A stretch of 64,000 nucleotides of DNA from assembly GCA_965197475.1 (NCBI GenBank), contig CBDANF010000002.1:1-64000 (forward strand), read 5' to 3'. The notes under the pieces were generated by a model that was given only the letters and a program-made list of their open reading frames with translations, was not told the DNA's origin and made no database searches. Of this stretch, positions 16,892 to 46,527 are shown in pieces (position 1 is the stretch's first letter; each line of letters opens with the position of its first letter). The stretch is from Candidatus Poribacteria bacterium. GTDB lineage: Bacteria; Poribacteria; WGA-4E; WGA-3G. The translations under genes and the position numbers were made by a program.

Positions 16892-17254
16892 CTAACTTTT
16901 TGGGTTCAGCGTGTAGTCAAAGTTCAGCCACAAACTTTTTGAGTAGCGGTAGAAAAAGACTGGGAATACTGCGGATACTATACCCCATACGCCAAAATTG
17001 AATAAGAAAGGGATAGATGTAAAAACGTCAAAGACAAAGTAGCCCGGAAAAACAAGAAACACTGTTGCACCATAATTAAGATACATTGCCCCGATGAAAT
17101 ATCCTTGCTCGCGTTCAAACTTCATATTACACATTTCGCAATGTGTGAACATCTTGAACCTTTTTTTAAACAGCGAACCTTTGCCACATCTCGGACACTT
17201 AAGTCCAAAACCACATCGCAAAATCTTTTTGAGATTGGTAAAGGATATATTCAT
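16892..17254 (-). CDS. DUF983-like Zn-ribbon membrane protein
   Basis: CPRCGKGSLF...CEMC followed by two hydrophobic helices. Confidence 0.75.
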   Translation of the reverse strand: MNISFTNLKKILRCGFGLKCPRCGKGSLFKKRFKMFTHCEMCNMKFEREQGYFIGAMYLNYGATVFLVFPGYFVFDVFTSIPFLFNFGVWGIVSAVFPVFFYRYSKSLWLNFDYTLNPKS

Positions 17255-17321
17255 ATCTCGAATTTCTTAAGGATAGATATTCGTTGGATTTCAAACAGTG
17301 TTAGGATGAACACGCTGATAG

Positions 17322-17975
17322 TTAGTAGGTGTTATCATCCCAAAAAACTTTGAACGTCCGTAGCAGTATCTTGAAATCGTTCCATAGGGACAAATTTTCA
17401 ATGTATTCCAAATCAACAGGTATTCCTTCACGGATTGAACCACGGCGGCGCGGACTCAACTGCCATAGTCCCGTCATTCCTGGACGCACAAGATGCCGTT
17501 GATTTTCCCAAGGCTCATAATTCTCAGCAAGAAAAGGCATTTCAGGACGCGGACCGACCAGACTCATTTCCCCTTTAAGCACATTAAAAAGTTGAGGTAA
17601 TTCGTCTAAACTCGTTTTTCGAATCCATTTTCCTATGGATGTAATGCGGACATCTTCTGTTGAATCCGGTTTTTCTGAATAGGATGGCGTATCAATATGA
17701 AGGCTTCTGAACTTGTGGATGATAAAGAGTTTACTGTTTAATCCTACTCTCTTGTGAGAGAAAAAGACTGGTCCACGCGACGATAGCTTAATCAGTATCG
17801 CAATCAGAATCATCAAAGGGGAAAATATCAGAATCAGGAAAAATGCTGCTACAAAATCGAATAGATATTTGCCTCGCTTTGCGTAAAAGGAGGAAAGTCT
17901 TTCAACTGAAGTTCGAGTTCCTGTGTCATTCATATATGAGAAGTCTGTTTTGGAGACGTACAATTTAGTTGGCAA
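17322..17975 (-). CDS. Priming sugar transferase (bacterial sugar transferase / small monotopic PGT; start may be 17933)
   Basis: KFRSL, RKTSLDELPQLFNVLKGEMSLVGPRPE, RPGMTGLWQ. Confidence 0.93.
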   Translation of the reverse strand: MPTKLYVSKTDFSYMNDTGTRTSVERLSSFYAKRGKYLFDFVAAFFLILIFSPLMILIAILIKLSSRGPVFFSHKRVGLNSKLFIIHKFRSLHIDTPSYSEKPDSTEDVRITSIGKWIRKTSLDELPQLFNVLKGEMSLVGPRPEMPFLAENYEPWENQRHLVRPGMTGLWQLSPRRRGSIREGIPVDLEYIENLSLWNDFKILLRTFKVFWDDNTY

Positions 17976-18015
17976 ATGTGACTTTGTCCTTCATCCTACA
18001 TGAGATGCGTTGATT

Positions 18016-19137
18016 TCACTTTTTCTTTTGTAGATTTTGAAACACTTCAATATATTGTTCCGCAATGTGATCCCAATTGAATCGTTTTCGGATCTGTTCT
18101 GTGGCACGTCGTCGAAAGTTCTCAACCCTCTCCGGGTCCTGTTCTAATGCCTCAATCTCAGCTTTGAGTGCTTCTGGGTTTTTGTCGAAGAGTACACCGT
18201 AATTGCCGCCTTCTAATACTTCATGGTTAAACGGTGTATTTAGCGCAAGAATGCAGTTAGAAAATCCTAACGCTTTCAAGATGGAAGGATTAATACCGCC
18301 GAATTGATGCCCGTGGATGTATGCGAAACAGTGATGATGAAGTTCTTTGATATGTTCAGAACTGTCAATGTGTCCGAGAAACAAGACGTTTTCATTGGCA
18401 ATGTTTTTCAACTTATCCAAAAATTCATTTTCAAGTTTGTTTCCTCTATAGTCTGCCCCACCCGCTATTGCGAGTTTTTTTTTACTGTTTGAGTTTACAA
18501 ATGCTTCCATAATCAGGTCAGCATTATTGTCAGGAACAAGACGACTCGCTATCAGATAGTAACCCCTTGACTCAAGCCCATAATTCTCAAGAACTTCAGG
18601 ATGCTCAGAGGGCTCAATGTTAGCTCCATAAGCGATATATGTCGTCTCAGCACCTAATTCTTCAAGATACAGTCGCTTCATTTCTTCAGCATCGGTAATG
18701 ACAAGCGGAAACGCCGAAGTAGCCATCTTCGCTGCCCATTTGAAATAGACCGCGCCTATACCTTTCCATTTTGGACGAAGCCATTCCATTCCATCAACAT
18801 TGATAACTGCAGTTTTACCAGCGATACGGAAAAACCATCCAAATGGACCATTGCCAGCATTCCATACGAAAATGACATCAGATGGCGTAAAAGAAGCATG
18901 CAAAGAAGCGAAAAAACTGTGACTGAGGGTACTAAACACCTTATGTTCAATACTGGGTAAGTAAACTAACTTGATACCTTTCCATTCCGGTGGTTTTTCC
19001 TTGAAAAAACCACTTCGGCAGTAGACGATAACTTCATGCCCTGCCTCAACCCAGCGCGGAGCAAGTTCTCCCATAACTGTCTCGGAACCGCTATAAGTTG
19101 CGGGAAGTCCTCGAATGCCTAATACCCGAATTCTCAT
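18016..19137 (-). CDS. GT4 glycosyltransferase (DUF1972-type)
   Basis: GIRGLPATYSGSET, NVDGMEW.R.KW, RLVPDNN, HGHQFGGINPSIL. Confidence 0.88.
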   Translation of the reverse strand: MRIRVLGIRGLPATYSGSETVMGELAPRWVEAGHEVIVYCRSGFFKEKPPEWKGIKLVYLPSIEHKVFSTLSHSFFASLHASFTPSDVIFVWNAGNGPFGWFFRIAGKTAVINVDGMEWLRPKWKGIGAVYFKWAAKMATSAFPLVITDAEEMKRLYLEELGAETTYIAYGANIEPSEHPEVLENYGLESRGYYLIASRLVPDNNADLIMEAFVNSNSKKKLAIAGGADYRGNKLENEFLDKLKNIANENVLFLGHIDSSEHIKELHHHCFAYIHGHQFGGINPSILKALGFSNCILALNTPFNHEVLEGGNYGVLFDKNPEALKAEIEALEQDPERVENFRRRATEQIRKRFNWDHIAEQYIEVFQNLQKKK

Positions 19138-19320: not shown

Positions 19321-20961
19321 TTAAAACCGATAAAGAGCCTTGGCTTGAATTTCATTCCCGGTTTCATGAACATTCTCACGATTATCTAAGTTCCTCCGCC
19401 AAACCCGAGCCCATTCACCATATATTGAATAATGTCCTATATCAACCCAGTTAAAACCGATCCTCAAGCGATGCTCACTTTCTGTGATTCCAGATAGCGG
19501 TATCCACACATCATCTTTCGGCGCATCAGGCGGATGGCTCTTATCAACGTTCCCTTCTCCGTGGCGTTCAAGTTCGTAACCAAAAACAGTTTCAAGCTTA
19601 TCCGTAAAACGTCTGCGTAGTTCAATCCATAGATTATCCGCATCTGAACCGATATGGTGTCCAATAACAGACGTAAAATGCTTATAAACGTTAAACGTGT
19701 TTATGTGCGTATATGCGTATTGGTTGATAAAAGCGTATTCTGCATGTAAATCAGTATCTGGCAATCCAAATGGATCCGTGAGATAAATTCCACCGAGGAT
19801 TCCAAACTTCGTATCCCAATGCTTAAAAACGGATATTGGATTTCCGTCGTCAACCATCAACTCACCATATATTTCAAAATTGTCTATAGGACGAAGCCGT
19901 ATATCAGCACTTATCAGGATATTGTCGCCACTACCAGGGACTCGGCTATCGGCACGTGAAATTGTCTGCTCGTTAATCAGATAGATATTGACCGGATTGA
20001 GATATCCTGGCTCAAAACGGTTTCCGTAAATGATTACCTCAGATATACCCAAACCAAACCTATCCCAGAAGTACCCCTCAAGTCTGTGTCCTGAAATATA
20101 TTTTTCATTGATTTCATCTGCCCTGTCTTCTAAAATACCGGTGAATGCGGTGAAGGTAGTAGTTTTGTATGTAGTTTGCAACTTCAGCATGTCTATAGCA
20201 ATAGGGTTTGGAGAAACCAATAGATTGCCATGATAACCAGGCCCCCACTGGAGATTGTCTTGTCCAAGTTGTAACTCAAACCAGGGGAAGTTAAATTTTA
20301 GGTAAGCATTAATTGCCGTTCGATGTTTCTGTCCAATTTTCAGTTCACCCTCCAGTTGCCTATATTTCGATTCATCAGGATAAAAGTCGTCAAAAACATC
20401 ACCATATAGCATTCTGTATGCCATATTTGCTGTGAACGCAAACTCTTCTTTGACTTGTCCATAAAGATGCGGAAACCATGTTGTGACAAACATAGTACCT
20501 TCAACCGGCGGTTTTTCGGACATGTTATCCACCAACCTGGTGATTGTTCGCTGTCTCCCCCTTAAATCAAATGAAAAGCGATAGGTGGTGTCGTCACTGA
20601 GACTGAACAGATGTAATCGTCGATTGGGAGGGATTTGTGTTCCAGCCTCTGAATAAAAGGCTAACAATTCGTTTAGGCGTTTCTGGTCGTTAACGCTTAA
20701 CGTCAGTTCGCCGCTATCAAGTTTTTGAGACACCTCCACCAGAAAAGATGCAACCTGTTTTCGCGTAAACGGCAGAGAACCGCGCGGAACACCGGATAAC
20801 ACACGTTTATTAAGTAAACGATGAATAAAGCGGTAGGTTTCAGTATTAAAGTCGGATATATCAGGGTTAAGTGGGACGTTGATTAGAGACGCAGCTTCGC
20901 CAAAAGGTAAATAGCAAAAATGAATAATTGTGCATAATATAAGTACGATGCGTAGAGACAT
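19321..20961 (-). CDS. Capsule assembly Wzi family outer-membrane protein
   Basis: Signal peptide; LPFTR, LGQDNLQWGPG, SGHRLE, GDNIL, YGELMVDD; C-terminal YRF. Confidence 0.78.
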   Translation of the reverse strand: MSLRIVLILCTIIHFCYLPFGEAASLINVPLNPDISDFNTETYRFIHRLLNKRVLSGVPRGSLPFTRKQVASFLVEVSQKLDSGELTLSVNDQKRLNELLAFYSEAGTQIPPNRRLHLFSLSDDTTYRFSFDLRGRQRTITRLVDNMSEKPPVEGTMFVTTWFPHLYGQVKEEFAFTANMAYRMLYGDVFDDFYPDESKYRQLEGELKIGQKHRTAINAYLKFNFPWFELQLGQDNLQWGPGYHGNLLVSPNPIAIDMLKLQTTYKTTTFTAFTGILEDRADEINEKYISGHRLEGYFWDRFGLGISEVIIYGNRFEPGYLNPVNIYLINEQTISRADSRVPGSGDNILISADIRLRPIDNFEIYGELMVDDGNPISVFKHWDTKFGILGGIYLTDPFGLPDTDLHAEYAFINQYAYTHINTFNVYKHFTSVIGHHIGSDADNLWIELRRRFTDKLETVFGYELERHGEGNVDKSHPPDAPKDDVWIPLSGITESEHRLRIGFNWVDIGHYSIYGEWARVWRRNLDNRENVHETGNEIQAKALYRF

Positions 20962-21000: not shown

Positions 21001-23052
21001 TTATTTTCGGATTACCATTTGTCGTATGGCTTTTGACTGACCAGCATTGAGAGCATAAAAATAGAGCCCACTTGCTACTAACTCTCCAGCAGAATTACGT
21101 CCATTCCAATACGCTGCTAGTTCCTTGGTGCGATAAGTGCCCGCGTTTTGGAATCCTATTTTGAGTTCTCTGATAGTTTCTCCCTTGAGATTATATATTT
21201 TGACGTCCACATTCGCATCCTGTGCTAAGTCGTAAGGTATCCACGTTTCCGGATTAAATGGATTCGGGAAGTTCGGTAGAAGGGTAGTTTTTTGTGGGAC
21301 TACGTTATTAAACAGTGCTTCTAAGTTGGCAATTCCGTGGCGAAAAACATCGGACCCATCATCTGCTTGATAGGCTTCGGTGAGCCATTCTGCGATACTG
21401 TCAAGATGGTTTGGGGAAACAGATAAAGGTGTTGACGGAGCTGAGGCGGTGCAGGATTCTCCAAAATGTGCAGCTATTAAAAGCAGATCAATTATATCAA
21501 CGTGTCCATCTTTATTCACATCTGCTTTCGGATATTCAAGTGTTTCTTTACCAAAACTGTTTGAGATGAGGATGAGGTCTTGCATGTCGACGATTCCGTC
21601 GTTATTTATATCCCAAGGTAGCGTATTTGGGACCGAAACTTGTGACGTAACCTCAGGTAATGCCGCTTTCCATCCAGCACGCAGTCGTTGGCTTAGATGT
21701 TCAACGAGTTCAGCATTCTCTGGAAGATCAACGATATTGATAGTTTCATCCGGGTCGGTATCATAATCGTAGAGTTCACGTCCTTTGCTCCCGCCGGTGT
21801 TCGACTCGGTATATCGATATCGTGCTGTACGAATAGAGTATCTCTTTGTGTAATTTCCTCGGCCGCCGGTTTGGCTAAAGACAGCCGTTTTCCACGGACG
21901 CGTCGGTTGTTCAATGACCGGCATTAAACTTAAACCTTCTAATTGTGAAGGTATTGGAAGTTGGCATGCGTCACACAACGTAGGATAAATGTCAACGAGT
22001 TCAACGAGAGCATCTGTTTGACCAAGCTGCTGTTCTGGAACACTGATAATCAAAGGTGAACGAAGGGCAACTTCAAAAAGCGTACTTTTGCCCCAGTTAT
22101 CATGCTCCCCTAAATGAAATCCATGGTCACTTGCAAAAACGATAACCGTGTTTTGAGAAATGCCAAGAGTATCCAGATGTTGAACGACACGTCCTACCTG
22201 CACATCCATGTAACTTGTTGATGCAGCATATCCTCGCATTAGTTCTAACGTTTTCTTTTCAGAAATCCGAGTGTTTCCATCGGGAATATCTGCATAGTCT
22301 CTTAAGTCATTCTGGGAAGGTGGTTTTATAGATGAAGCATCTTTGAAAGTTTCGATATCATATAAATCGTAATATTTTCGAGGCACGTTGTAAGGAAGAT
22401 GTGGTTTATGAAAACCGACAGCGAGAAAAAACTGCTGGTCTTTAACCTGCGTCAGAATTTCAATAGATGTGCATGCAATTCTGCCATCTAGTAGTTCATC
22501 ATCGGCAACATCAAGTACCTGCCAAGAAGGTATCGTTGCTCGATCAATTCTCAATTGCTGGGACCAAATTGGAGCACTCCAGGAGAGCGTATCATGCCAT
22601 TTGTCAGCGTGCGCAATTTTACCAACGGAACGCGTATGATAGCCCTGGATTTTGAAATGTTGTGGTAGTGTCACAACTTCTGGCAATGCCTCACGCCATC
22701 CCATGGCATTCCCATATACACCAGTCGTCTCTGGTCGCAAACCGGTCATCATTGAAACGCGAGATGGATTACAGAGTGGATATTGGCAATACGCCTGGTT
22801 GAAAAGCGTGCCTTGCTTAGCCAAGGCATCAATATTCGGTGTATGCATCTCGGAATGACCGTAGCACCCCAGCAAAGGGCGCAAATCATCAACAATAATA
22901 AACAACACATTGTATTGGCAATCAGCGTCTGCCCTGAGTTTGGGTAAAAGCCCTGTCGTGAAGGCGGCTGCGCCTGCTTTCAAACTTGTTGATAAGAAGT
23001 CCCGTCGGGTAAATGGTTGAGAGAATGCTTTCTGTTGGTTATCGTTTTTCAT
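21001..23052 (-). CDS. Tat-exported S1 sulfatase (iduronate-2-sulfatase-like) with dockerin-like and FlgD-Ig C-terminal module
   Basis: TRRDFL; NVLFIIVDDLRP; CNPSR; GFHKPHLP; SDHGFHLGEH; DINNDG/DVNKDG; NFPNPFNPETWIPY. Confidence 0.92.
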   Translation of the reverse strand: MKNDNQQKAFSQPFTRRDFLSTSLKAGAAAFTTGLLPKLRADADCQYNVLFIIVDDLRPLLGCYGHSEMHTPNIDALAKQGTLFNQAYCQYPLCNPSRVSMMTGLRPETTGVYGNAMGWREALPEVVTLPQHFKIQGYHTRSVGKIAHADKWHDTLSWSAPIWSQQLRIDRATIPSWQVLDVADDELLDGRIACTSIEILTQVKDQQFFLAVGFHKPHLPYNVPRKYYDLYDIETFKDASSIKPPSQNDLRDYADIPDGNTRISEKKTLELMRGYAASTSYMDVQVGRVVQHLDTLGISQNTVIVFASDHGFHLGEHDNWGKSTLFEVALRSPLIISVPEQQLGQTDALVELVDIYPTLCDACQLPIPSQLEGLSLMPVIEQPTRPWKTAVFSQTGGRGNYTKRYSIRTARYRYTESNTGGSKGRELYDYDTDPDETINIVDLPENAELVEHLSQRLRAGWKAALPEVTSQVSVPNTLPWDINNDGIVDMQDLILISNSFGKETLEYPKADVNKDGHVDIIDLLLIAAHFGESCTASAPSTPLSVSPNHLDSIAEWLTEAYQADDGSDVFRHGIANLEALFNNVVPQKTTLLPNFPNPFNPETWIPYDLAQDANVDVKIYNLKGETIRELKIGFQNAGTYRTKELAAYWNGRNSAGELVASGLYFYALNAGQSKAIRQMVIRK

Positions 23053-23064: not shown

Positions 23065-25083
23065 TTATTTCATAATTACCATTTGTCGTATGGTTTTTGA
23101 CTGACCAGCATTGAGGGAATAAAAATAGAGTCCACTTGCAACTAATTCTCCAGTAGAATTGCGTCCATCCCAAAATGCTGCCAGTTCTTTGCTCCGATAG
23201 CTGCCCGCGTTTTGAAAACCTATCTTGAGTTCTCTGATAGTTTCTCCCTTGAGATTATATATTTTGATGTCTACATTTGCATCTTGTGCCAAGTCGTAGG
23301 GTATCCACGTTTCTGGATTAAAAGGATTTGGGAAGTTCGGTAGAAGAGTAGTTTTTTGTGGGACTACGTTATTAAACAGTGCTTCTAAGTTGGCAATCCC
23401 GTGGCGAAAAACATCGGACCCATCATCTGCTTGGTAGGCTTCAGTGAGCCATTCTGCAATACTCTCAAAATGGTTTGGGGAAACAGATAAAGGTGTTGAT
23501 GGAGCTGAAGCGGTGCAGGATTCTCCAAGATGTGCAGCTATTATGAGCAAATCAATAATATCAATATTTCCATCTTTATTCACATCTGCTTTCGGATATT
23601 CAAGTGTTTCTTTACCAAAACTGTTTGAGACGAGGATTAGGTCTTGGATATTGACGATGCCATCGTTGTTTATATCCCAAAGGAGCGCATGTGGAATTGG
23701 TATATGTCCCTGAACATTAGACATTGCTTCTTTCCAACCGGCACGCAGCCGTTGGCGTAGATCTTCGACAAGTTCTGCATTTTCTGGGAGATCCACTACA
23801 TTAACGGTTTCATTCGGATCATCAAGATAGTCGTAAAGTTCACTGCCGAATTTACCTCTCCTCCCCCATTCTGTGTATCGGTATCTTTCGGTGCGCATTG
23901 AAGTGGATCCAGCTCCTGCGCGGGTTAGATAACTGAAAGCAGCACTTTTCAAAGGTTTGGTAGGTTCTTCTATTACAGGCATTAGACTTAATCCTTCTAA
24001 CTCGGAAGGAATTGGAAGTTCACATGCGTCGCACAAAGTAGGATAGATGTCTACCAATTCTACTAAGGAATTTGTTTGGCACGACTGTTGTCCTGGAACA
24101 CTGATAAGTAAAGGGGAACGAACACCAATCTCAAAAAGTGTATTTTTCCGCCAGGTCCCATGCTCACCAAGATGAAAACCGTGATCACCACAGAAAACAA
24201 TAACTGTGTTATTAGTCAACCCAAGTGTGTCCAATTGACGCAGGACACGACCGACTTGTGCATCCATATAACTTGTTGAAGCCACATAAGCGCGAATCAA
24301 TTCTAATGTTTTCTCCTCAGAAATTGGCTCGTCACCAGATGGAATATCCCGATAAAGTCTAAATAAATCTATCTTGTTGTGGGCATCAGGTGGTGAATTA
24401 AGTGGATAACTTGAAGTAGGGGGTAATATAAAGGGATTTGGATTGTATAATTCGAAATATTTTTGAGGAGCATGAAAGGGTAAATGAGGTTTGTCAAACC
24501 CAACTGTTAGGAAGAATTGTTGATCTTTAATATTTACTAAAAGTTCCTCAGTTTGTCTTGCAGTTTTACCATCACTTAATTCGTCATCTGAAACATCAAG
24601 GGCATTCCAAGATGGACCATAAGTAAAAGGGGCAGGATAGTGTCGCACTTTACCGACAGTATGTGTATTATAACCTTGTTCCATAAAGTGTTGGTACATA
24701 TCCACCGCGTCAGGTACTGTGTTTTTATAATCTGCGGAATTGTTGTGTACTCCTGTAGTCTCCGGACGCAACCCTGTAAGGATAGAAGCCCGAGAAGGAT
24801 TACAAAGTGGGTATTGGCAATAGGCACGATTGAAGAGTGTTCCACGTGCAGCTAAACTGTCAATGTTTGGGGTGTGCATCTCAGGAATGCCGTAGCAACC
24901 AAGCATAGGACGCAAATCATCCACAATCATGAACAATACATTATGCTTTCCTTCAGCTTTTGCATTTAGACGTGGTAACAAACTTGTTGTAAAGGCAGTC
25001 GCACCAACCTTGAGGCTCGTTGAAAGAAAGTCACGCCGAGTATAGGAACGTGGAATAACCTGATTTTCTATTGTTTTTTTCAC
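23065..25083 (-). CDS. Tat-exported S1 sulfatase with dockerin-like and FlgD-Ig module
   Basis: TRRDFL; CNPSR; KPHLPF; DHGFHLGEH; same C-terminal module. Confidence 0.92.
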   Translation of the reverse strand: MKKTIENQVIPRSYTRRDFLSTSLKVGATAFTTSLLPRLNAKAEGKHNVLFMIVDDLRPMLGCYGIPEMHTPNIDSLAARGTLFNRAYCQYPLCNPSRASILTGLRPETTGVHNNSADYKNTVPDAVDMYQHFMEQGYNTHTVGKVRHYPAPFTYGPSWNALDVSDDELSDGKTARQTEELLVNIKDQQFFLTVGFDKPHLPFHAPQKYFELYNPNPFILPPTSSYPLNSPPDAHNKIDLFRLYRDIPSGDEPISEEKTLELIRAYVASTSYMDAQVGRVLRQLDTLGLTNNTVIVFCGDHGFHLGEHGTWRKNTLFEIGVRSPLLISVPGQQSCQTNSLVELVDIYPTLCDACELPIPSELEGLSLMPVIEEPTKPLKSAAFSYLTRAGAGSTSMRTERYRYTEWGRRGKFGSELYDYLDDPNETVNVVDLPENAELVEDLRQRLRAGWKEAMSNVQGHIPIPHALLWDINNDGIVNIQDLILVSNSFGKETLEYPKADVNKDGNIDIIDLLIIAAHLGESCTASAPSTPLSVSPNHFESIAEWLTEAYQADDGSDVFRHGIANLEALFNNVVPQKTTLLPNFPNPFNPETWIPYDLAQDANVDIKIYNLKGETIRELKIGFQNAGSYRSKELAAFWDGRNSTGELVASGLYFYSLNAGQSKTIRQMVIMK

Positions 25084-27240: not shown

Positions 27241-27303
27241 ATAGAATGATTCCTTATTAATGAGTAGAGTGTCTTTCCCGAACCTATTATTTGAATAGTC
27301 TAC

Positions 27304-29367: not shown

Positions 29368-30989
29368 TTTCTGACCTCAAGCACGCCAAAACTGTTTTTT
29401 GGAATTGTTAGTTCTTTCGCATTTCCAATCCAATTTTGGATTTCTACCTCAATTTTTCCAGAACCTTCCATCTCAGCATTCCCACCGTTAGTTGCTGTAA
29501 GTTTTTCATTTGCTACATAACGATACGTGACTTCAGTTTTCATCCGTTTTTCATCAATAGAGAGTTGAGGAGTGAAATCATTACCTGTACGATTACTTAC
29601 AAAAATGAAGATGTTATCTGTGTTTCCGATGGCTTGAACTTGAATTCCCGGCATCTGCTTCCCTTGATAATCCAATCCCCCTTCAAACATTAGTGGATCT
29701 TGTAACGCAACCGCGAACTGCGTATCTGAGTTCTCAAACGCCTCTCCAATTAATAAAAAAGAAAAGTATACAGTGCGCCGAATTGTGTCGCCATAATCTG
29801 ATTCTGGCTCCCCGCCATATTTCCAAAAGGTCTTTGGTGATGGTGGCGTAATCCGTGAAAATACGGGAAACCCTTTACCAGGACCAGTAATCACATGAAA
29901 ATTCGCCTGTGTTATGTTCGGCATATTGAGCAATTTTAAAAAGAAATCGCCAGCATACATCGCATGGAGTTGGGTATTAGCGACTCGATTTGCTGGGTTG
30001 GCTATGTTCCACTCTGTCACCCACATCTCTTTATTTGGAAACAACTTATGATAATAATCCAATGCTTCTTCGATTCCATAGTGTATCCAACCGAAGAGGT
30101 AACCCCGCATCTCCTCTATTTCAACTTTTTTAACGGCTTTGTAGGCATAAATGTGAACGGTGTAAGCATCATACCAGTTGGTCGTTGAAGGAGTAGTACC
30201 CTCTGCAAGGTTTTCATCCCATTTACGTTGAGCCCATTTTATTAACCATCCCTCTTTGTGGAATGCTACAGGTGTCGCGCATACAGACACTTTTATGTCA
30301 GGATTAACCGCTTTCATCGCTAACGCATGTTCCTTGGCTACCTTCATATAGGTTGCAGCACTACGGAATTTGTTGGCGTAATGCGGCAAATAGTACTCGT
30401 TTCCAAGTTCCCAGTGACTAATGTCGTACCCCATCTCTTTTGAATAACGAACCCACGCTGCGCTCTCATCAGGACTACCGGTCCACAAGTTGACAACAAC
30501 AATTGGTGTTATGTTTAAGTTTTGGCAGAGACGCATAAATTCGTCAAAAGAGATTTTACCTTCGCGCCGCTTTTGAAGTTTGACGTAATTCCCTCTATTC
30601 CGTTTATTAAGTTGAAGACTGAGCGTTGTTGTCATTTCATCTTTAATAAAACCATCAGTTTTCCAATGATAGAAATTTCCCACTGTTCCACCAGGAAAGC
30701 GTAAAGTTTTCGGTTGAAGAGCTTTTGTTAAGGCAACAAAATCTGTGTCAAGGTAGCCGTAATCTCCACTCATCATGTTTGTATTGAAGCCGTAGAGTTC
30801 TTTTCTTAAGGGTGTTTTGGTTTGTGTGTCAATCGCTATGCGCACAGTTTCGGAAATTAGTTCTTTCTTTTCACATCCCCTAATTAATAGCATGGTCAGC
30901 ACACATACAACAAATATGCTGCAAAATAGGTAAAGTTTTGAGTGTTTAGATTTCCATATCTTATGCCATAGATGGAAAAATGATTTCAT
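29364..30989 (-). CDS. Membrane-anchored clan GH-A glycoside hydrolase (GH79/GH51-like)
   Basis: N-terminal TM; LRFPGGT; WELGNE acid/base; WVTEWN nucleophile. Confidence 0.8.
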   Translation of the reverse strand: MKSFFHLWHKIWKSKHSKLYLFCSIFVVCVLTMLLIRGCEKKELISETVRIAIDTQTKTPLRKELYGFNTNMMSGDYGYLDTDFVALTKALQPKTLRFPGGTVGNFYHWKTDGFIKDEMTTTLSLQLNKRNRGNYVKLQKRREGKISFDEFMRLCQNLNITPIVVVNLWTGSPDESAAWVRYSKEMGYDISHWELGNEYYLPHYANKFRSAATYMKVAKEHALAMKAVNPDIKVSVCATPVAFHKEGWLIKWAQRKWDENLAEGTTPSTTNWYDAYTVHIYAYKAVKKVEIEEMRGYLFGWIHYGIEEALDYYHKLFPNKEMWVTEWNIANPANRVANTQLHAMYAGDFFLKLLNMPNITQANFHVITGPGKGFPVFSRITPPSPKTFWKYGGEPESDYGDTIRRTVYFSFLLIGEAFENSDTQFAVALQDPLMFEGGLDYQGKQMPGIQVQAIGNTDNIFIFVSNRTGNDFTPQLSIDEKRMKTEVTYRYVANEKLTATNGGNAEMEGSGKIEVEIQNWIGNAKELTIPKNSFGVLEVRK

Positions 30990-32335
30990 AGCGTTATCCT
31001 TAACGGTTTATAGGTTTGAAGTGCTGTATCACTAACGAACATCAATCCGGCGCACATCCAAAAGTAAAAACCGTATCCTCGAAATTCAAGCGTCCTGTTG
31101 AAAAAGAGCAGAAACATGGTGACAACGACAAGACAAAGCATAACCATTGCCATCTCTTTTGTAAATCTGCTTACAGCCCGCTTGTAAAGTTTCAATGATG
31201 CAATAAAGAGACGATAAAATATAAGCATGAACAAACCTAATCCCAATACACCATAAAAACAGAGAATAGCAACCCAATACACATCCTTAAATCCCTTCTT
31301 ACTAAGAATTTTAAGCAGAAAAGAACGTTTGCTTTTGTTGAGTCTTTCAATCGTGGTGTTTTGGTCAGCACCGTACCCTAAAAATGGTTTGTTCGCAAGG
31401 ACTGTGGGAACATTCCCAATTAGAGCACCGAGACGCTGCTTTTGTGCGACCTTCACATAAGAACCCGAAAAAACACCTGTAACGTTACCCACAAGTCCAA
31501 CTTTGGCTTTACGGGGATTAACGTAATCCAATTCAAACGGATTCAGTATTGCTAACACAACGCTGAAAATCAATAAGCATATCAGAGATATACGGAGTGT
31601 TTTTTTCCATCCGTATTGAAAAAAGTACCACACAACACAAGCAAGCAGTGCAGAAAATGTTGCTGCCCGTGAATAGGAACGTGCAATAAACATCAATAGG
31701 ATTGCAATACCGAGTAGATTCAAGTACTCAAGCCGCTTGATACGCGATAAAAAGATGATGAGGATAACAATCATAAACACACCATAAATAACCGTATCGC
31801 CTAAGGTGCCATAGATACTGCCAATTTCCCTGCCGATTTCAAGTAACCTGAATTCTTTCGTAAACCCTGCCACCTCAAGTGTGGAAGCACGAGGTAAAAA
31901 GAAATCATAAAAGGTTGGACCGCCAAGCCACTGGATTATACCCACCCCGATCTGAATTATGCCGATACCTAAAATTATCCGCAAAAGGGTAGCAATCCGT
32001 TGTTTAGATAGGGGAGAATTCACAATAAGATAAAAAAGCACAATGTAACGGGCAAGTGGACGGATATTGTATAAACTTCCTATTAGAGGGGAACGGTTTA
32101 TCACCATTGAAAGAAAGACCACAATGTAAAAGCCTATCACAGGTAAATCAATGGGGGTTTTGACAAACGGAATACCCTTGTAAAGTTTGTGGAAAACAAG
32201 TTTTCCGAATGCTGCATAAATGAGAATTTCGCCTAAGAATCTTAAATAGGAGTAAACCGCATCGCTGACAGGTAAGAACTTCAGCACAAACTCTTCAAAT
32301 GCAAAGTATCCGGTGAGAAAATAAATTATTGCCAT
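30986..32335 (-). CDS. O-antigen ligase / Wzy polymerase family membrane protein
   Basis: About 11 hydrophobic helices; GTLG, SYSRAA, KPFLGYG, YGVLGL. Confidence 0.75.
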   Translation of the reverse strand: MAIIYFLTGYFAFEEFVLKFLPVSDAVYSYLRFLGEILIYAAFGKLVFHKLYKGIPFVKTPIDLPVIGFYIVVFLSMVINRSPLIGSLYNIRPLARYIVLFYLIVNSPLSKQRIATLLRIILGIGIIQIGVGIIQWLGGPTFYDFFLPRASTLEVAGFTKEFRLLEIGREIGSIYGTLGDTVIYGVFMIVILIIFLSRIKRLEYLNLLGIAILLMFIARSYSRAATFSALLACVVWYFFQYGWKKTLRISLICLLIFSVVLAILNPFELDYVNPRKAKVGLVGNVTGVFSGSYVKVAQKQRLGALIGNVPTVLANKPFLGYGADQNTTIERLNKSKRSFLLKILSKKGFKDVYWVAILCFYGVLGLGLFMLIFYRLFIASLKLYKRAVSRFTKEMAMVMLCLVVVTMFLLFFNRTLEFRGYGFYFWMCAGLMFVSDTALQTYKPLRITL

Positions 32336-32435: not shown

Positions 32436-33341
32436 TTAATGATGTGTTTGCCAATGTGTTAAATCTTGTCTCAATAATTCTGCTAACTGTTCATTATAAG
32501 GTTTAAAATACTGGACTAATTCCTGGCCCGTCTGTGGGTTCAGGGGCGGAGGCGTAAAAGTTTTTTCGTTTAAGTCCAAAATAGCTTTTCTCAATTTGTA
32601 AGCAGTCGCATCTGGAACAAACTTCCGAATTGCACGTCTCAATGGATTACGGGAGGCAAGAAATTGCGTAAACAGAAAGCCCAATTTTTCGGATCGTGGC
32701 ATTGCAGCCTGATTGTGATGTTCGCCTACTACTGGCTCAAAATCTAAATGGACACCTATTAGTTTGAAAATTTGTTGACAAACGGCATTGGCATCGGTTT
32801 TCAATTCATCTGTCAAAACACAGTGTACTTGATCTGCCCCGAACTGTGTAATCATATTTTTCACTAATGGATAATAGGTGCTGTTGAATCGATATGCACA
32901 TTGCCGCCATTTAAACCAATTTTCATTTAGGCGTGTTTCCTCAACTTCAAGTGCATCTTCAAAAGTTTTAATATTTTCCCATCCTCTGCGGCGGGCCCAC
33001 CAATACGCAGAATACGCACGCGAAACAGGCTCTCGTAAAAGGACAATAAGGTGGATTTCAGGGTTGTGTTCATATATCCGTTGCATAATTTCTTGTGAAC
33101 ACATTACCATCACATTTTTCGCAATGATGTGCATATTTTCTGGACATTTTGAGAAATATTTTGCGAACGCCCATTCGTAGCCACGCACATATTCATGGTC
33201 TTGAAGGAAAAAAGTCATCTCTGGTTGCGGATGTGTGTAGATTTCAGGATGCTGTGCCAAGTAGCGCAACAACGAAGAAGTACCTGACTTCTGTGAACCT
33301 ACAATCATCAGTTGAATGTTTTTAGATTGATCCTTTTTCAT
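32436..33341 (-). CDS. Sulfotransferase (Sulfotransfer_1, heparan-sulfate sulfotransferase-like)
   Basis: IVGSQKSGTSSL..YL.QHP; LREPVSRAYSAY. Confidence 0.9.
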   Translation of the reverse strand: MKKDQSKNIQLMIVGSQKSGTSSLLRYLAQHPEIYTHPQPEMTFFLQDHEYVRGYEWAFAKYFSKCPENMHIIAKNVMVMCSQEIMQRIYEHNPEIHLIVLLREPVSRAYSAYWWARRRGWENIKTFEDALEVEETRLNENWFKWRQCAYRFNSTYYPLVKNMITQFGADQVHCVLTDELKTDANAVCQQIFKLIGVHLDFEPVVGEHHNQAAMPRSEKLGFLFTQFLASRNPLRRAIRKFVPDATAYKLRKAILDLNEKTFTPPPLNPQTGQELVQYFKPYNEQLAELLRQDLTHWQTHH

Positions 33342-34342
33342 CAGGTTAGTCTACCTATAAAAGGTTGCCATGGTGGTTGTTTGCCAATCAATTTTCTGAG
33401 ATCATCTACATCGTGCTCATAGAACGTAACTAACCGATTTTGCGTTTTTTCAGAAACGGTGACGCTTTCATCAGGACGGGTGTTCAAACGGAGATAGAGT
33501 GGTTCAATTGCTCGCCTCATTACACGCAAAGATCTATGAATTATAGGTTTGTTATGTGTCCACCGACGTACCTGGAATCTAAACGCTCTATATTTCTGAT
33601 GAAACTCTGAATTTCTCATCGTCTCGGTGCGATTGGTAACCTTAAATGTATAATCCTCATAAAAATCAGGTTCTATATCAGCAAAACGGCATAAATCATT
33701 CAAAACTTTTAATGGGTTTTCGGCAAGGTCTTCATAAAAAAGCGTGTAGATGCGGTCTTTACCAAAACGTTCAAGATAGTTTTTCAGATAGCTTGCGTAA
33801 CATCCCTGTTGGAGCGTTTGCATGTACTGTTGACGGTCTATGTTTTCCTCGGAATTCACATCATCCTGAGATGTTTGTTCTACGGACGGTTTTGCCGACA
33901 CAACATTGAAAAGTTCTTCAACATAACCATCAAAACTGAGACTTTTCGGCAATCTTCCTATCTGTCTTGCGAAGCGATACCACGAAATTAATCGAGAAAT
34001 CGGTTCACGTAGACTAAAAATCAACTTGGCATGTGGCAGAAACTTAGCAATTCTCTCAAGCGCAGATGCACAATACAAGTAGTCTGGTGTTGACTCAAGT
34101 CTAAATTGATTTTCATCACATTCTGAAAACAGCAAATTGTATTCTTCAACATCACCTTTGAATCGGAATTTTGAAGGCAGTGGATAATCAGTGTCAAGAA
34201 AGAAACGGGTTTCTTTATAGGATGCGGCACAAACTGATGGATGGTCGGCAAGATAGGCGAACAAAGATGTTGTCGCAGCTTTTGTTGTCCCTCCGACAAT
34301 CAGATATTGGTAGTCACTGACCATTTTTGTTGAAGTTTGCAT
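33341..34342 (-). CDS. Sulfotransferase (Sulfotransfer_1, heparan-sulfate sulfotransferase-like)
   Basis: IVGGTTKAATTSL..YLADHP; KETRFF; ESTPDY; LREPISRLISWY. Confidence 0.9.
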   Translation of the reverse strand: MQTSTKMVSDYQYLIVGGTTKAATTSLFAYLADHPSVCAASYKETRFFLDTDYPLPSKFRFKGDVEEYNLLFSECDENQFRLESTPDYLYCASALERIAKFLPHAKLIFSLREPISRLISWYRFARQIGRLPKSLSFDGYVEELFNVVSAKPSVEQTSQDDVNSEENIDRQQYMQTLQQGCYASYLKNYLERFGKDRIYTLFYEDLAENPLKVLNDLCRFADIEPDFYEDYTFKVTNRTETMRNSEFHQKYRAFRFQVRRWTHNKPIIHRSLRVMRRAIEPLYLRLNTRPDESVTVSEKTQNRLVTFYEHDVDDLRKLIGKQPPWQPFIGRLT

Positions 34343-34416
34343 ATTCCATCAAAATCTAAACGACAAATAATTCCTTAAAGCATTTCAAAATATCTACTTT
34401 TCCAAAAAACAAATCT

Positions 34417-35784
34417 TCAACCTTTCGAATATAGAGAAACACCCGTTTTTCTAAGCAGAAAGACTAAATTCGCCACAGCAAGAACTGCAGTAACCACAAT
34501 AGCAATCGCAATTCCTGTTAGTTCCCATACCGTCACAAGTCCGTACGCCACAATGAAGTTTAAAACCGCCATTGTGACCATGTTTCTAAAAATGAGTCCA
34601 TACGTTTTCTGAGCATAGAGTCCAGCATTTAGCACGGGAATCAAGCAAGAAAATACTGTACCAATGCTTAAACAGAAAAGGATTTGACCAATCTGTTGAA
34701 CAGATCGGTCAGCAAGTTCACCTCTTCCATAAAGGATATGCGCTATTTTTGTTGAACCCAATAGAAGTAAAAACGTAATTGGGACTGCGATGTATAATAC
34801 AGTTCGCAAGTTGCGTAATAGTGTCTGTCTCAACTTTTGTTTATTCTCTTCAGTGTTATCTGCTGCCATATCAGGCAATCCTGTTGTGGCAATGCTTATC
34901 CCAATAAGCGTCTGTATCGCAGAAAAAATTCGGAAGGCACTATTGTAGAGTGTAATTGCGCCTTTGCCGAGTTTTCCCACTAAAAACACTTCAACAAACA
35001 AACGAGCAGTTATCTGTCGGATTGCGAAACCGAGTGTCGGCAGTGGAATTGTCTCTTTCAATGAACGCAGTGCATCAAAAGATATCCACGAAAAACGGTA
35101 GCCATATCCCGCCCTATGCATCCCGACGTACAACCACCCAAAATATACCACAAATCCGGATGCGTAGGCTATAGCGACGCAATGTGCAAGGTTTTCTGCA
35201 TCTGATAGAAGCAGGAAGACCAAGGTTGCGATCCCGGATGGAAGCGCGTTTCGGAAGGCAACTGTTTTGAAACGCCGCTGACTATTTAGAAACGCCCCCA
35301 ATATTGTGCTACCACTACCGAAGATAACTAATGGCGCACACAATCGCAATAAGGTTGCCATCTCTACTCTTGCTACCACCGAACTACTTGACAACAAAAC
35401 GTTCGCGATCCATGTTGCGAATACCTCTATTAGCAGCATCAAAACCACGCCCGCACAGAGCATAAAATTTAAGATGCCACTTGTAAAATATTGAAAATCG
35501 GTTCTGCTTTTCGATTTCTCTTCATTTATAAAAAGCGGAACAAGACTAAATTTAGCACCTTCTCGGAGTACAGTATCAACTAATAGAACAACCTTTAATG
35601 CAGCAATTAAAGCGTCCGCTGTTTCACTTACCTCAAGATATCTGGGAATTAAGACATGGAATAAGAGACTCAACCCCATTCCTATAAAGGTAATTAGCAT
35701 TACCCAGCGAGTTGGAGAATGTCTCAACTTTTCTACTAATCTACCTATCTTTTGGAACGAGTTATGCTCTCGAATTCGCTTCAA
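34417..35784 (-). CDS. MurJ/MviN-like MOP flippase
   Basis: About 12 hydrophobic helices; EGA..SLVPLF, LNSQRRF, ISIATTGLP. Confidence 0.82.
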   Translation of the reverse strand: MKRIREHNSFQKIGRLVEKLRHSPTRWVMLITFIGMGLSLLFHVLIPRYLEVSETADALIAALKVVLLVDTVLREGAKFSLVPLFINEEKSKSRTDFQYFTSGILNFMLCAGVVLMLLIEVFATWIANVLLSSSSVVARVEMATLLRLCAPLVIFGSGSTILGAFLNSQRRFKTVAFRNALPSGIATLVFLLLSDAENLAHCVAIAYASGFVVYFGWLYVGMHRAGYGYRFSWISFDALRSLKETIPLPTLGFAIRQITARLFVEVFLVGKLGKGAITLYNSAFRIFSAIQTLIGISIATTGLPDMAADNTEENKQKLRQTLLRNLRTVLYIAVPITFLLLLGSTKIAHILYGRGELADRSVQQIGQILFCLSIGTVFSCLIPVLNAGLYAQKTYGLIFRNMVTMAVLNFIVAYGLVTVWELTGIAIAIVVTAVLAVANLVFLLRKTGVSLYSKG

Positions 35785-35914
35785 GTTCTAATTGTCTCTC
35801 AAATGCACTATACTGAAAACCAGATTTTTGACTTGTCGGTTCGCCGAATTGTTCATTTTTTGTGATTAGCAGGAGTTAGAAATCCAGTTGTTACGAATTT
35901 GCAATATGCTAGCA

Positions 35915-36316
35915 TTATCCGTTGAGAATCTTCTGGACAATGTCTGTGGTATGGATATAATCCGTATACACCGTTTGAACAGGTATCTCTAATCCCAGTT
36001 CTTCAAGAATCTCGCGGAGTCTTGCATTGCCATCAGCACCTTCAACACAAATATCGGGTGATACCTGAGCAACTAAATCCAGTTGCGACTCCAAAGAAAA
36101 GATTTCCACAGTATCCACATATCGACATGCTTTTATCAGTGCAATACGTTGTTCAAGGGGATAAATAGGTCTATTTTCACCTTTGACGCGTCGGACTGTA
36201 TCATCCTCAGCAACACCGACCACGAGCCGATCACCACATGCAGCCGCTGCCTCGAAGAATTTCAGATGTCCATAATGAAATAGATCGAAACAACCCGTAA
36301 CCAAAACAGTTTTCAC
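35915..36316 (-). CDS. Cytidylyl/adenylyltransferase family (TagD / RfaE domain II-like)
   Basis: GCFDLFHYGH (HxGH), KGENRPI, TTDI. Confidence 0.88.
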   Translation of the reverse strand: MKTVLVTGCFDLFHYGHLKFFEAAAACGDRLVVGVAEDDTVRRVKGENRPIYPLEQRIALIKACRYVDTVEIFSLESQLDLVAQVSPDICVEGADGNARLREILEELGLEIPVQTVYTDYIHTTDIVQKILNG

Positions 36317-37326
36317 GTTTGAAGCTCCAATGCTCTAAAAGCATATTTGGCTGTTTGCCGATGTTGGTAAACCTCTGCCTCTGGTGGAGAATTGAAGTGG
36401 AACGGACTGTCTAGTTTATCTAGTTTAGGAGCCAGTTTTTCACCGTATCCACCGATAACGTATATCTCTGATTTTTCGGGAACCTGCATCAACTCATATA
36501 GGGAAATGATGTAATTCATTTCAGAAATAGTAATTGGATTGGAAACTTTTTTGACGACCTGTTTGTGAAAACTACCGTTTGCTGTAATCGTCCAACGTAT
36601 TCCTTCCAATTTCTCATCTTGTCTCGGTAAGAATGAAATTTCCGGCTGACTGATCACCACCCATGTTCCTGCAATGATGATTGGTTTGGGATTAAACACA
36701 GAGATACAACTATGATCATGCCCGCCAGCAAAGACTGCAACACCGTTTTCAGTGTTCCCAACGATTGTTGCTGCACTCATGAATTCAGATGAAAACGGAA
36801 AGGGTTCACACTGATATTTTTGGAGTAGTTCGACTGCCCAACGTCGCTGAGAAAAGTTTAACATACCGCTATTGCCAGCGTGTGTCAAATCCCAAGTATT
36901 TATTTTAGCATTTGCAAGCCGAGATGCGATATAGGTTGAAACAGGTAATGCTGGTCCGTCAGAATAGGAAGGAAACGTTAGAAGCGATTGAAATGCTGAA
37001 CCGATATCCCGTTTGACATCCGTTGGCGTGCCTGTCTGCTCATAATAATCCTCAGATAAAGGCACACGATTATGGGTAGGTTCATAAATAATATTGTTAT
37101 AAACAACACCTTCTCCGAAACTAAGCGGAAAGATTGCTTGATACGTGTAATTGTCAAACTTAGACAAAACCTCTCTAACACATGCCTCAAGCGTCCTTGG
37201 TGATGTAATATCGGTCACCAATTTATAATCAGCGATGATGTCTAACGTATTGTTGAACAGATAGCCTTTCGTATATGAACAACCTATGTCAAGAACCAGG
37301 ATTTGCATTGCAATACCTCTGCACAA
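36313..37326 (-). CDS. Divergent, shortened FGGY-family carbohydrate kinase
   Basis: LDIGCSYTK, SFGEG, THAGNSG, GGHDH, AGTW, IGG; 337 aa versus the usual ~480. Confidence 0.65.
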   Translation of the reverse strand: MCRGIAMQILVLDIGCSYTKGYLFNNTLDIIADYKLVTDITSPRTLEACVREVLSKFDNYTYQAIFPLSFGEGVVYNNIIYEPTHNRVPLSEDYYEQTGTPTDVKRDIGSAFQSLLTFPSYSDGPALPVSTYIASRLANAKINTWDLTHAGNSGMLNFSQRRWAVELLQKYQCEPFPFSSEFMSAATIVGNTENGVAVFAGGHDHSCISVFNPKPIIIAGTWVVISQPEISFLPRQDEKLEGIRWTITANGSFHKQVVKKVSNPITISEMNYIISLYELMQVPEKSEIYVIGGYGEKLAPKLDKLDSPFHFNSPPEAEVYQHRQTAKYAFRALELQT

Positions 37327-46522: not shown

Positions 46523-46527
46523 AATTT

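Follow-up and report, generated by a model that had tools for sequence, protein, structure and literature searches.

A conserved Poribacteria locus for a putatively sulfated surface polysaccharide that encodes its own exported sulfatases

Gene content and transcription of the locus

Here, we describe a gene cluster of a Candidatus Poribacteria bacterium that appears to direct the synthesis of a sulfated surface polysaccharide and that also encodes exported sulfatases and a membrane-anchored glycoside hydrolase. The genome comprises 5.70 Mb in three contigs (C1 to C3) and is 92.7% complete; the stretch analyzed, referred to as the window, spans positions 1 to 64,000 of contig 2. Positions 16892 to 37326 are occupied by 16 co-oriented minus-strand open reading frames (ORFs), which in the order of transcription encode a kinase, a nucleotidyltransferase, a flippase, the sulfotransferases ST1a and ST1b, a Wzy-like protein, the hydrolase, the sulfotransferases ST3a and ST3b, three sulfatases, Wzi, a GT4 glycosyltransferase, a priming transferase, and a DUF983 protein. 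This gene content supports assignment as a polysaccharide assembly locus with four sulfotransferases. The genes that a first-pass annotation had named from the DNA letters (priming transferase, GT4, Wzi, sulfatases, sulfotransferases, hydrolase, Wzy-like protein, and flippase) were all recovered on this strand at the coordinates below, with weak Wzy_C and GH79n matches. Listed in the direction of transcription, and including two upstream genes of the conserved cluster, the features are as follows.

46528..47430, minus strand: exported beta-helix lipoprotein, first gene of the likely ancestral cluster (Pfam Beta_helix/NosD; lipobox-like N terminus in the alignment)
45320..46522, minus strand: second GT4 glycosyltransferase (GT4b), part of the likely ancestral cluster (Pfam)
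36313..37326, minus strand: FGGY-like sugar kinase, accessory (Pfam FGGY_N, 29.9 bits; cut-off, 28.8)
35915..36316, minus strand: small nucleotidyltransferase, RfaE domain II-like, accessory (Pfam CTP_transf_like, 73.2 bits)
34417..35784, minus strand: multidrug/oligosaccharidyl-lipid/polysaccharide (MOP)-family, MurJ/Wzx-like flippase (Pfam MurJ, 148.3 bits, and Polysacc_synt_3, 44 bits, both over the cut-off)
33341..34342, minus strand: sulfotransferase ST1a, Sulfotransfer_1 type (Pfam PF00685, 54 bits; 1-nt overlap with ST1b)
32436..33341, minus strand: sulfotransferase ST1b, Sulfotransfer_1 type, resembling heparan sulfate (HS) sulfotransferases (Pfam PF00685, 37.6 bits)
30986..32335, minus strand: Wzy/O-antigen-ligase-like polytopic membrane protein (Pfam Wzy_C, E 4e-6, 27.1 bits, under the cut-off of 31.7)
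29364..30989, minus strand: membrane-anchored clan GH-A glycoside hydrolase, 541 amino acids (subthreshold GH79n; predicted fold GH51/GH79-like)
28342..29367, minus strand: sulfotransferase ST3a, Sulfotransfer_3 type, with a hydrophobic C-terminal tail (Pfam PF13469, E 5e-29)
27304..28305, minus strand: sulfotransferase ST3b, Sulfotransfer_3 type (Pfam PF13469, E 1.2e-26)
25150..27240, minus strand: sulfatase 1, architecture as in sulfatase 3 (Pfam Sulfatase, 164.4 bits; Dockerin_1; FlgD_ig, 34.8 bits)
23065..25083, minus strand: sulfatase 2, architecture as in sulfatase 3 (Pfam Sulfatase and SGSH_C)
21001..23052, minus strand: sulfatase 3, with Tat signal, Cys-type S1 domain, dockerin, and type IX secretion system (T9SS)-type C-terminal domain (CTD) (Pfam Sulfatase, 155.5 bits; SGSH_C; Dockerin_1)
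19321..20961, minus strand: Wzi-family outer membrane capsule assembly protein (Pfam Caps_assemb_Wzi, E 5.4e-25, 88.6 bits; N-terminal hydrophobic segment)
18016..19137, minus strand: GT4 glycosyltransferase with a DUF1972 N-terminal domain (Pfam Glycos_transf_1 and DUF1972)
17322..17975, minus strand: small polyprenyl-phosphate sugar-1-phosphate (priming) transferase (Pfam Bac_transf, E 2.4e-63, 213.4 bits; cut-off, 27)
16892..17254, minus strand: DUF983 small membrane protein, last conserved gene of the cluster (Pfam DUF983, 37.2 bits)

The gene overlaps remarked on in that annotation amount to 1 to 4 nt at four gene pairs (29364-29367, 30986-30989, 33341, and 36313-36316), and the remaining intergenic gaps measure 12 to 183 nt. 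None of nine terminator-like sites falls into a minus-strand intergenic gap. Such sites (9 versus 15.9 in shuffled sequence) and promoter-like matches (44 versus 46.3) show no excess, so they define no operon boundaries. Metatranscriptome contigs from four runs of three studies match the locus, mostly at 90 to 95% likeness; the genes partly covered are those for the priming transferase, GT4, sulfatase, ST3b, Wzy, ST1a, flippase, and kinase. The ST3b/sulfatase 1 junction is spanned by one contig of 341 nt (27044-27381); contigs of this kind are no proof of one continuous transcript and may stem from DNA carry-over.

Conservation of the cluster in relatives

The order flippase-ST1a-ST1b-Wzy-hydrolase-ST3a-ST3b is identical in all ten genomes of the genus that were mapped over 34 kb, and the same core order recurs in every public-record locus long enough to display it. 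In nine of the ten mapped genomes, ST3b is followed by one to five sulfatase genes and then by Wzi, GT4, and the priming transferase. ST3b was found in 40 public-record Poribacteria loci, 37 of which have enough sequence after it to be informative. One to at least four sulfatase genes come right after ST3b in 30 of these 37 loci, and in one more, two sulfatase genes stand behind an inserted pair of lamin-tail-domain (LTD) and leucine-rich-repeat (LRR) genes. The remaining six divide into three that run from ST3b straight to Wzi and three that lose synteny there. Synteny of the sulfatase genes with the biosynthetic genes, set beforehand as the test that could overturn their grouping, thus holds in 31 of 37 loci, and also in the form of a sulfatase clade confined to the cluster (see below). 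Copy number ranges from zero to five sulfatases per cluster. Within the genus, 23 of 24 genomes encode the hydrolase (63 to 84% identity); in 16 genomes from three further families of the order, it is absent or matched weakly (29 to 30% identity).

The conserved cluster extends past position 37326 to 47430, which adds GT4b and the beta-helix lipoprotein; the part between 37326 and GT4b contains inserted surface-protein genes and a mobile element. The compact locus L055, free of surface-protein insertions, reads beta-helix protein, GT4b, NAD-epimerase, flippase, ST1a, ST1b, Wzy, hydrolase, ST3a, ST3b, Wzi, GT4, priming transferase, and DUF983, and likely shows the ancestral form of the cluster. 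GT4b stands upstream of the flippase block in this locus, and the lipoprotein, whose structure model is of low confidence (pLDDT 55.5), takes the same place in L055 and L109. At the other end, the DUF983 gene follows the priming transferase gene in seven of the ten mapped relatives and also in L108. The kinase and nucleotidyltransferase genes are present or missing as a pair across the mapped relatives, the latter being missing in four of the ten.

Sulfotransferases and polymer assembly

All four sulfotransferases exceed the curated Pfam cut-off for PF13469 or PF00685 (94.8, 102.5, 37.6, and 54 bits). Three of them have no hydrophobic segment, and ST3a has one at its C terminus (residues 304 to 327). 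The closest PDB match of ST1b is 3rnl, titled only "Sulfotransferase" (E 4e-31), and next in rank are the heparan sulfate enzymes 3-OST-5, 3-OST-1, and NDST1 (E 2e-15 to 3e-7), which bears out the earlier suggestion that one of the two sulfotransferase types is HS-sulfotransferase-like. ST3a matched PKS (polyketide synthase)-linked and tyrosylprotein sulfotransferases weakly, ST3b is 68 to 94% identical in relatives, and NCBIfam models returned weak similarity to NoeE (Nod factor) only. A genome-wide profile search with PF13469 recovered the four cluster sulfotransferases and one elsewhere; PF00685 was applied to the window. The gene context supports a glycan as the probable acceptor of these enzymes.

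Individual assembly proteins could be placed with different precision. The priming transferase contains one hydrophobic segment (residues 35 to 68) and reaches 268 bits against the NCBIfam EPS_sugtrans model, under its cut-off of 295.55. The DUF1972-GT4 protein, 87 to 96% identical in relatives, scores 177 bits against the NCBIfam Cps2T-type model, far under the cut-off of 500. A rhamnose-containing polymer, which this Cps2T-like similarity might suggest, is unsupported, given that no RmlC (dTDP-sugar isomerase) was found in the 92.7%-complete genome. With 139 bits, the flippase stays under the cut-off of the NCBIfam murJ equivalog (235.55) and is thus not the housekeeping MurJ. The Wzy-like protein shows ten hydrophobic windows, several of them overlapping, and 84 to 94% identity in relatives; its sub-cut-off Wzy_C match would suit a polymerase as well as a ligase. 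UDP-sugar dehydrogenases are encoded elsewhere in the genome, and none of the transferases in the cluster could be identified as hexosaminyl or uronosyl. A glycosaminoglycan-like backbone of the product is a possibility suggested by family-level resemblance.

A Pfam search of the 64-kb window detected no Wza, Wzc, or 3'-phosphoadenosine-5'-phosphosulfate (PAPS) synthesis gene, in agreement with the first-pass annotation, and genome-wide searches located these functions outside the window. APS kinase (cysC, 248.6 bits) and ATP sulfurylase (sat, 264.5 bits) are both encoded elsewhere in the genome, as are two Wza proteins. One wza gene is immediately followed by wzc, encoding an 798-residue protein with Wzz, GNVR, and P-loop kinase domains; the pair lies at C3:2009629-2013369 (Poly_export and SLBB; Wzz, GNVR, and AAA_31). 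Neither a flippase nor a polymerase nor a glycosyltransferase set adjoins it, which makes it an orphan export pair, and we infer that it serves the sulfated-polymer cluster.

The exported sulfatases belong to one clade dedicated to the cluster

All three sulfatases (Pfam Sulfatase, 144 to 164 bits, each with SGSH_C) start with an RRDFL Tat-type N terminus and carry a Cys-type C-x-P-S-R...TG motif, realized as CNPSR or CSPSR (CNPSR in sulfatase 3 and CSPSR in sulfatase 1). All three end in a dockerin and a T9SS-type sorting domain according to Pfam and NCBIfam, a module that the first-pass annotation had not recorded. TIGR04183 scores 24.4 (sulfatase 3) and 24.8 bits in two of them (cut-off, 23), and FlgD_ig 34.8 bits in the third. 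Their presumed export is thus matched by signals at both ends of the proteins. With 677 to 717 amino acids they are longer than any other sulfatase ORF of the genome (at most 585 amino acids), so that only the three cluster sulfatases are long enough for a sorting module. The genome holds 47 sulfatase-domain matches in about 43 genes, as well as 23 matches to the domain of formylglycine-generating enzyme (FGE), which are candidate sulfatase maturation enzymes.

Searched against the PDB, the catalytic domain matched 6hhm (E 1.2e-81) and then human iduronate-2-sulfatase (IDS; E 7e-57), whereas the third-ranking match (E 1e-38) trails 6hhm by 43 orders of magnitude. These similarities support placing the sulfatases with the S1_7/iduronate-2-sulfatase group, the type to which they had initially been ascribed. 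Both matched enzymes share the Cys-type motif; they differ from the cluster sulfatases in being catabolic (Formosa agariphila P18_S1_7, 6HHM) or lysosomal (human IDS, 5FQL/6IOZ) and in that the matched chains have only 475 to 525 residues. The substrate of human IDS is iduronate-2-sulfate. P18_S1_7 acts on xylose-2-sulfate of ulvan, and galactose-4-sulfate is the substrate of a second S1_7 enzyme (PMC9096561). Because members differ in this way, the subfamily does not fix the substrate.

A sulfatase tree was built by a quick method from 128 catalytic domains, 38 from this genome and 90 from the loci of relatives, with nine Latescibacterota rows drawn; membership in the cluster group was set at 45% identity or more. 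All 87 cluster sulfatases fell into one clade (SH-like approximate likelihood ratio support [SH-aLRT], 100; stem length, 1.71), separate from 35 other sulfatases of this genome, from six nonclade sulfatases in the loci of relatives, and from the sulfatases adjoining the Latescibacterota homologs of the hydrolase. The Tat motif is present in 86, the Cys-type motif in 82, and the dockerin motif in 84 of the 87 members. The three sulfatases of the window are 57 to 59% identical to each other over the BLAST-aligned region, and the next sulfatase of the same genome reaches 31% at most. At least five paralog lineages within the clade are common to several species, and the three window sulfatases fall into three different ones. 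Such sharing points to a single capture, after which old duplications and differential loss shaped the clade, and this history, read from the tree, is favored over repeated independent insertion of sulfatase genes.

A search of 31 genomes of the genus found clade members in 27, with 78 matches in all. Of these, 57 share a contig with the hydrolase gene, and 56 of the 57 lie within 16 kb of it; the remaining copy, in genome G017, is directly upstream of the Wzi-GT4-priming transferase-DUF983 half of a split cluster. Hence, all 57 placeable clade copies are in the cluster or its split half. One clade together with this invariable placement indicates that the sulfatases are dedicated to the cluster and are not strays. 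Among the four genomes without a clade sulfatase, G023 and G041 also lack ST3b, G023 lacks the hydrolase as well, and G008 and G043 keep ST3b.

Two further observations concern these genes. In G017, the halves of the split cluster are 1.14 Mb apart (C1:763378-776917 and C1:1904000-1923999, the latter being L108), and a clade sulfatase is kept beside each half. In the window, the C-terminal 209 residues (dockerin and CTD) of sulfatases 2 and 3 are 90% identical (21001-21630 versus 23065-23694), compared with 63.5% in the catalytic parts. Near-identical C-terminal modules in members of different old paralog lineages suggest gene conversion or module exchange.

The hydrolase represents a GH-A family unmatched in the searched Pfam copy

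The hydrolase has a single transmembrane segment at its N terminus (residues 16 to 41). Its description as heparanase-like in the first-pass annotation did not stand, as GH51 is its nearest family, GH79 comes second, and the curated cut-offs of both were failed: Glyco_hydro_79n reached 17.1 bits (cut-off, 23.1) and the NCBIfam model for ArfA (GH51) 53.9 bits (cut-off, 625). PDB sequence matches to GH51 span residues 74 to 236 only (E 1e-9). The predicted model consists of a (beta/alpha)8 barrel and a beta-sandwich (pLDDT 73; pTM 0.76). In a Foldseek search with this model, GH51 arabinofuranosidases ranked best (E 9e-24; TM 0.63/0.70), and a GH79 beta-glucuronidase came below all GH51 entries (E 7e-17; TM 0.53/0.63). 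With GH79n under its cut-off and GH51 closer by sequence and fold, membership in GH79 or the heparanases is rejected.

Among 14 aligned sequences down to 28% identity, residues G196, E198, and E326 never vary, and N197 hardly does; by analogy with clan GH-A, the conserved glutamates (an NE motif and a second E) are the putative catalytic residues. A library of 1.84 billion proteins contains 57 representatives of the family at an E value of at most 1e-30 and 689 at an E value of at most 1e-10. Of 24 distant relatives, 21 had no family match in the Pfam copy searched, and the hydrolase is accurately described as a clan GH-A member of a family unmatched there.

Hydrolase homologs with 61 to 66% identity occur in Latescibacterota records (L086-L096 and L099), where a cleavable signal peptide replaces the anchor. 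Their gene order (L088:1519-11530) is FGE, FGE, LarA-like protein, PhyH, a 414-amino-acid sulfatase, Na+/solute symporter, and hydrolase, with no biosynthetic gene. These features suggest that the gene was transferred across phyla of symbionts, and feeding on the same glycan is possible. The relation of the two phyla is a polytomy in the hydrolase tree, compatible with either direction of transfer.

Surface proteins with the same sorting module and a multicopy element

The genes inserted into the extended cluster of the window are the following.

37423..39444, plus strand: multicopy element with two DUF1670/helix-turn-helix (HTH) ORFs, outside the pathway (repeat copies elsewhere in the genome)
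39439..44383, minus strand: two surface proteins (FG-GAP/ASPIC; LRR) with the dockerin-CTD module (Pfam)
44565..45170, minus strand: LTD protein (Pfam LTD, 64.5 bits)

The FG-GAP/ASPIC and LRR genes are found at this position in most relatives, and their C-terminal modules are 45 to 48% identical to that of the sulfatases. The module matches at about 84 places in the genome, which also contains 20 cohesin matches. A SprA-like ORF of 2,194 amino acids scores under the curated cut-off. Three PorU-like ORFs of 1,749 to 2,196 amino acids (C3:63668-68764, C2:1200210-1205780, and C3:3901215-3905594) match the sortase model over most of its length, their scores adding up to about 364 to 415 bits (cut-off, 420), and similar ORFs were present in all six relatives searched. 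Judged by these sequence features, tethering of the cluster sulfatases to the cell surface is plausible.

The DUF1670/HTH element (~2.02 kb) has 18 further near-full copies in the genome (90.6 to 98.1% nucleotide identity), 16 of which abut or overlap the 3' end of a dockerin-CTD gene. The copy in the window abuts the stop codon of the FG-GAP gene and is absent at this place in G003; in L072, a DUF1670/HTH pair lies behind a cluster sulfatase gene. The element looks like a mobile element with a preference for the 3' ends of CTD genes. Its multicopy nature, with 18 other copies, rules out the two ORFs as divergent regulators of the cluster.

Proposed function of the locus and competing explanations

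Own exported sulfatases inside the biosynthetic cluster of a presumed sulfated coat are an unusual arrangement, and the product is most likely sulfate-decorated. By a small measure, the genomic evidence inclines us to the view that this Poribacteria cluster is a Wzx/Wzy-type locus for a heavily sulfated surface polysaccharide equipped with its own extracytoplasmic trimming enzymes; we infer the enzymatic steps, the sulfated product, and the use of the cell's own polymer as sulfatase substrate. The priming transferase and the two GT4 proteins would build a short lipid-linked repeat at the inner membrane face. Four cytoplasmic, PAPS-dependent sulfotransferases, one of them membrane tethered, would sulfate this repeat, with PAPS provided by the sat and cysC products. 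The MOP flippase would turn it outward, the Wzy-like protein would polymerize or ligate it, and the orphan Wza-Wzc pair may export the polymer, which Wzi would hold on the outer membrane. PAPS is cytoplasmic. As the sulfotransferases moreover lack membrane segments, save for one tail, sulfation would take place on the lipid-linked repeat before flipping, following the Wzx/Wzy scheme in the excerpted text of the synechan study (PMC8205485).

The catalytic domain of the hydrolase and the sulfatases are extracytoplasmic and would thus meet the product only after its export from the cytoplasm. Hydrolases such as PslG, BcsZ, and PelA are encoded inside exopolysaccharide operons. The GH-A hydrolase resembles them as an exported or anchored enzyme encoded among, and overlapping, biosynthetic genes, and it differs in belonging to another family, with GH51 and GH79 as its nearest folds. 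By this analogy, it may set chain length or release polymer. The S1_7-like sulfatases, matured by FGE, exported via Tat, and sorted to the surface by the dockerin and T9SS-type module, would remove particular sulfate esters. As copy number (zero to five) and paralog mix vary by species, the final sulfation pattern would vary as well.

Several points weigh against such a function. The locus has three glycosyltransferases for four sulfotransferases, the Wzy assignment is under the Pfam cut-off, and sulfation and sugars of the product are gene-based predictions. The core is intact without a sulfatase gene in L055, L057, and L062, and G008 and G043 retain ST3b but have no clade sulfatase; synthesis thus does not depend on the sulfatases. 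An 11-of-12 promoter-like match stands right before the first sulfatase gene (27338-27310), although such matches are no commoner than chance. Characterized S1_7 enzymes are catabolic (PMC9096561). The closest cross-phylum homologs of the hydrolase are in a catabolic-looking operon (sulfatase, Na+/solute symporter, and FGEs), and a degradative role of the hydrolase-sulfatase pair is equally conceivable. Since the locus also contains further CTD surface proteins of a host-interaction flavor, co-location need not mean a shared substrate.

These last points feed the most serious alternative, which we consider rather unlikely. It accepts a sulfated coat and lets the sulfatases, and perhaps the hydrolase, act on external sulfated glycans, be it those of the sponge matrix or others, as an aid to foraging or to movement in the mesohyl; the sulfatase genes would reside here since CTD proteins collect in the locus or since regulation is shared. 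It is in line with the catabolic S1_7 relatives, the 61 to 66% identical Latescibacterota hydrolases beside a sulfatase, a symporter, and FGEs, and the dispensable sulfatase block of variable copy number, and it would also account for the nested FG-GAP/ASPIC, LRR, and LTD proteins with the same dockerin-CTD module. The excerpted literature likewise views the sulfatases that sponge symbionts carry as enzymes for the digestion of sulfated glycans. Yet none of the 57 placeable clade copies occurs away from the cluster, the clade stays with a cluster half after the split, and genomes without the cluster are also without the clade. The genome's other sulfatases, roughly 40, lie elsewhere and have no sorting module, and Pfam detected no transporter or further catabolic gene beside the cluster sulfatases in the window.

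The sorting module is the starting point of a second, improbable alternative, in which T9SS-type cargo is anchored at the surface by the sulfated polymer, genes for CTD cargo gather in the locus of their anchor glycan, and the Wzy_C protein is a ligase. In Porphyromonas gingivalis, PorU attaches CTD proteins to anionic lipopolysaccharide (LPS). Six genes with the CTD module or for related surface proteins do lie inside this one glycan locus, the module matches at about 84 genomic places, PorU-like and SprA-like ORFs exist, and Pfam Wzy_C is an O-antigen ligase family. Against this, all matches to the machinery are under curated cut-offs, most CTD-module genes are elsewhere in the genome, and Wzi and the orphan Wza-Wzc pair suggest a capsule-type rather than an LPS-type product. 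The confinement of this sulfatase clade to the locus would also be left unexplained. That the sulfotransferases act on a small molecule, lipid, or protein and stand among glycan genes incidentally is very improbable: the PKS-linked and tyrosylprotein sulfotransferases among the PDB relatives of the Sulfotransfer_3 type and the weak NoeE similarity are outweighed by four genes interleaved or overlapping with those for Wzy, the hydrolase, and each other, by a gene order kept in every mapped relative, and by the absence of PKS, nonribosomal peptide synthetase (NRPS), and lipid genes from the locus.

Relation to described systems

Genetic proof for sulfated bacterial polysaccharides is mainly cyanobacterial, according to the excerpts of the synechan study (PMC8205485), and as far as these excerpts go, the synechan (xss) cluster of Synechocystis sp. 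PCC 6803 is the nearest described system. It is likewise of the Wzx/Wzy type with sulfotransferases of distinct subfamilies, and its outer membrane exporter is also encoded outside the cluster. The excerpts describe two sulfotransferases and eight glycosyltransferases, compared with four and three in the Poribacteria locus, a copolymerase within the cluster, where the Poribacteria wzc lies elsewhere, and no sulfatase, hydrolase, or Wzi, all three of which are present in Poribacteria; the word "sulfatase" appears in the synechan paper in its reference list only. Synechan was analyzed chemically, whereas the Poribacteria product is predicted from genes.

Next in likeness is a cluster of Pontiella sulfatireligans F21, a sulfatase-rich marine bacterium that both degrades and makes sulfated glycans and has PF13469 sulfotransferases in glycan biosynthesis, the putative product being a sulfated, glycosaminoglycan-like exopolymer (PMC7356697). 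In the excerpted description, this cluster has one sulfotransferase, many GT2 and GT4 proteins, and no embedded sulfatase, and the bacterium is free-living, not a symbiont. A literature search combining sulfotransferase, sulfatase, Wzy, and exopolysaccharide returned the synechan paper only. Searches of the literature, with supplements outside their reach, gave no description of this locus and no link of Poribacteria to sulfotransferase-based glycan synthesis; Kamke 2014 (PMC3909097) contains no mention of dockerin, cohesin, sulfatase, or sulfotransferase.

Poribacteria are described as widely distributed sponge symbionts. Sponge tissue matrix is itself sulfated. If the preferred reading of a self-trimmed sulfated polysaccharide is true, these bacteria would be producers of a sulfated glycan inside a tissue with a sulfated matrix. 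With its sulfatase clade tied to a biosynthetic locus, the cluster provides a concrete, clonable test case of extracellular sulfate editing in bacteria. Animal heparan sulfate is sulfated by sulfotransferases, and the extracellular endosulfatases Sulf1 and Sulf2 erase selected esters outside the cell. The likeness lies in PAPS-based writing inside and erasing outside the cell, and ST1b aligns to HS 3-OST and NDST1; the Poribacteria sulfatases differ in being S1_7-like (IDS group) and not of the Sulf type, and no homology of the whole pathways is claimed.

It is tempting to speculate further, although we hold the full picture to be unlikely, that a host-like sulfated coat, its pattern set after export by zero to five surface-tethered, species-specific paralogous sulfatases, might be a bacterial counterpart of the animal heparan sulfate/Sulf "sulfation code", used for recognition by or escape from sponge cells. 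The polymer may double as an anchor for CTD proteins, and co-resident Latescibacterota might feed on it by means of the 61 to 66% identical hydrolase in their catabolic operon.

Genes flanking the cluster

An IS1-family transposase gene (47706-48434, plus strand) lies right at the upstream boundary of the extended cluster. It is followed by an RNA-repair gene pair on the minus strand (48570-52644), encoding Pnkp (kinase-phosphatase-ligase, 589 bits) and Hen1 (384 bits). Before the cluster, the plus strand encodes a periplasmic pectate-lyase family protein (1958-3775) and PhyH-type dioxygenases (8360-9163 and 9903-10907); PhyH is the most abundant domain family reported for Poribacteria (PMC3909097).

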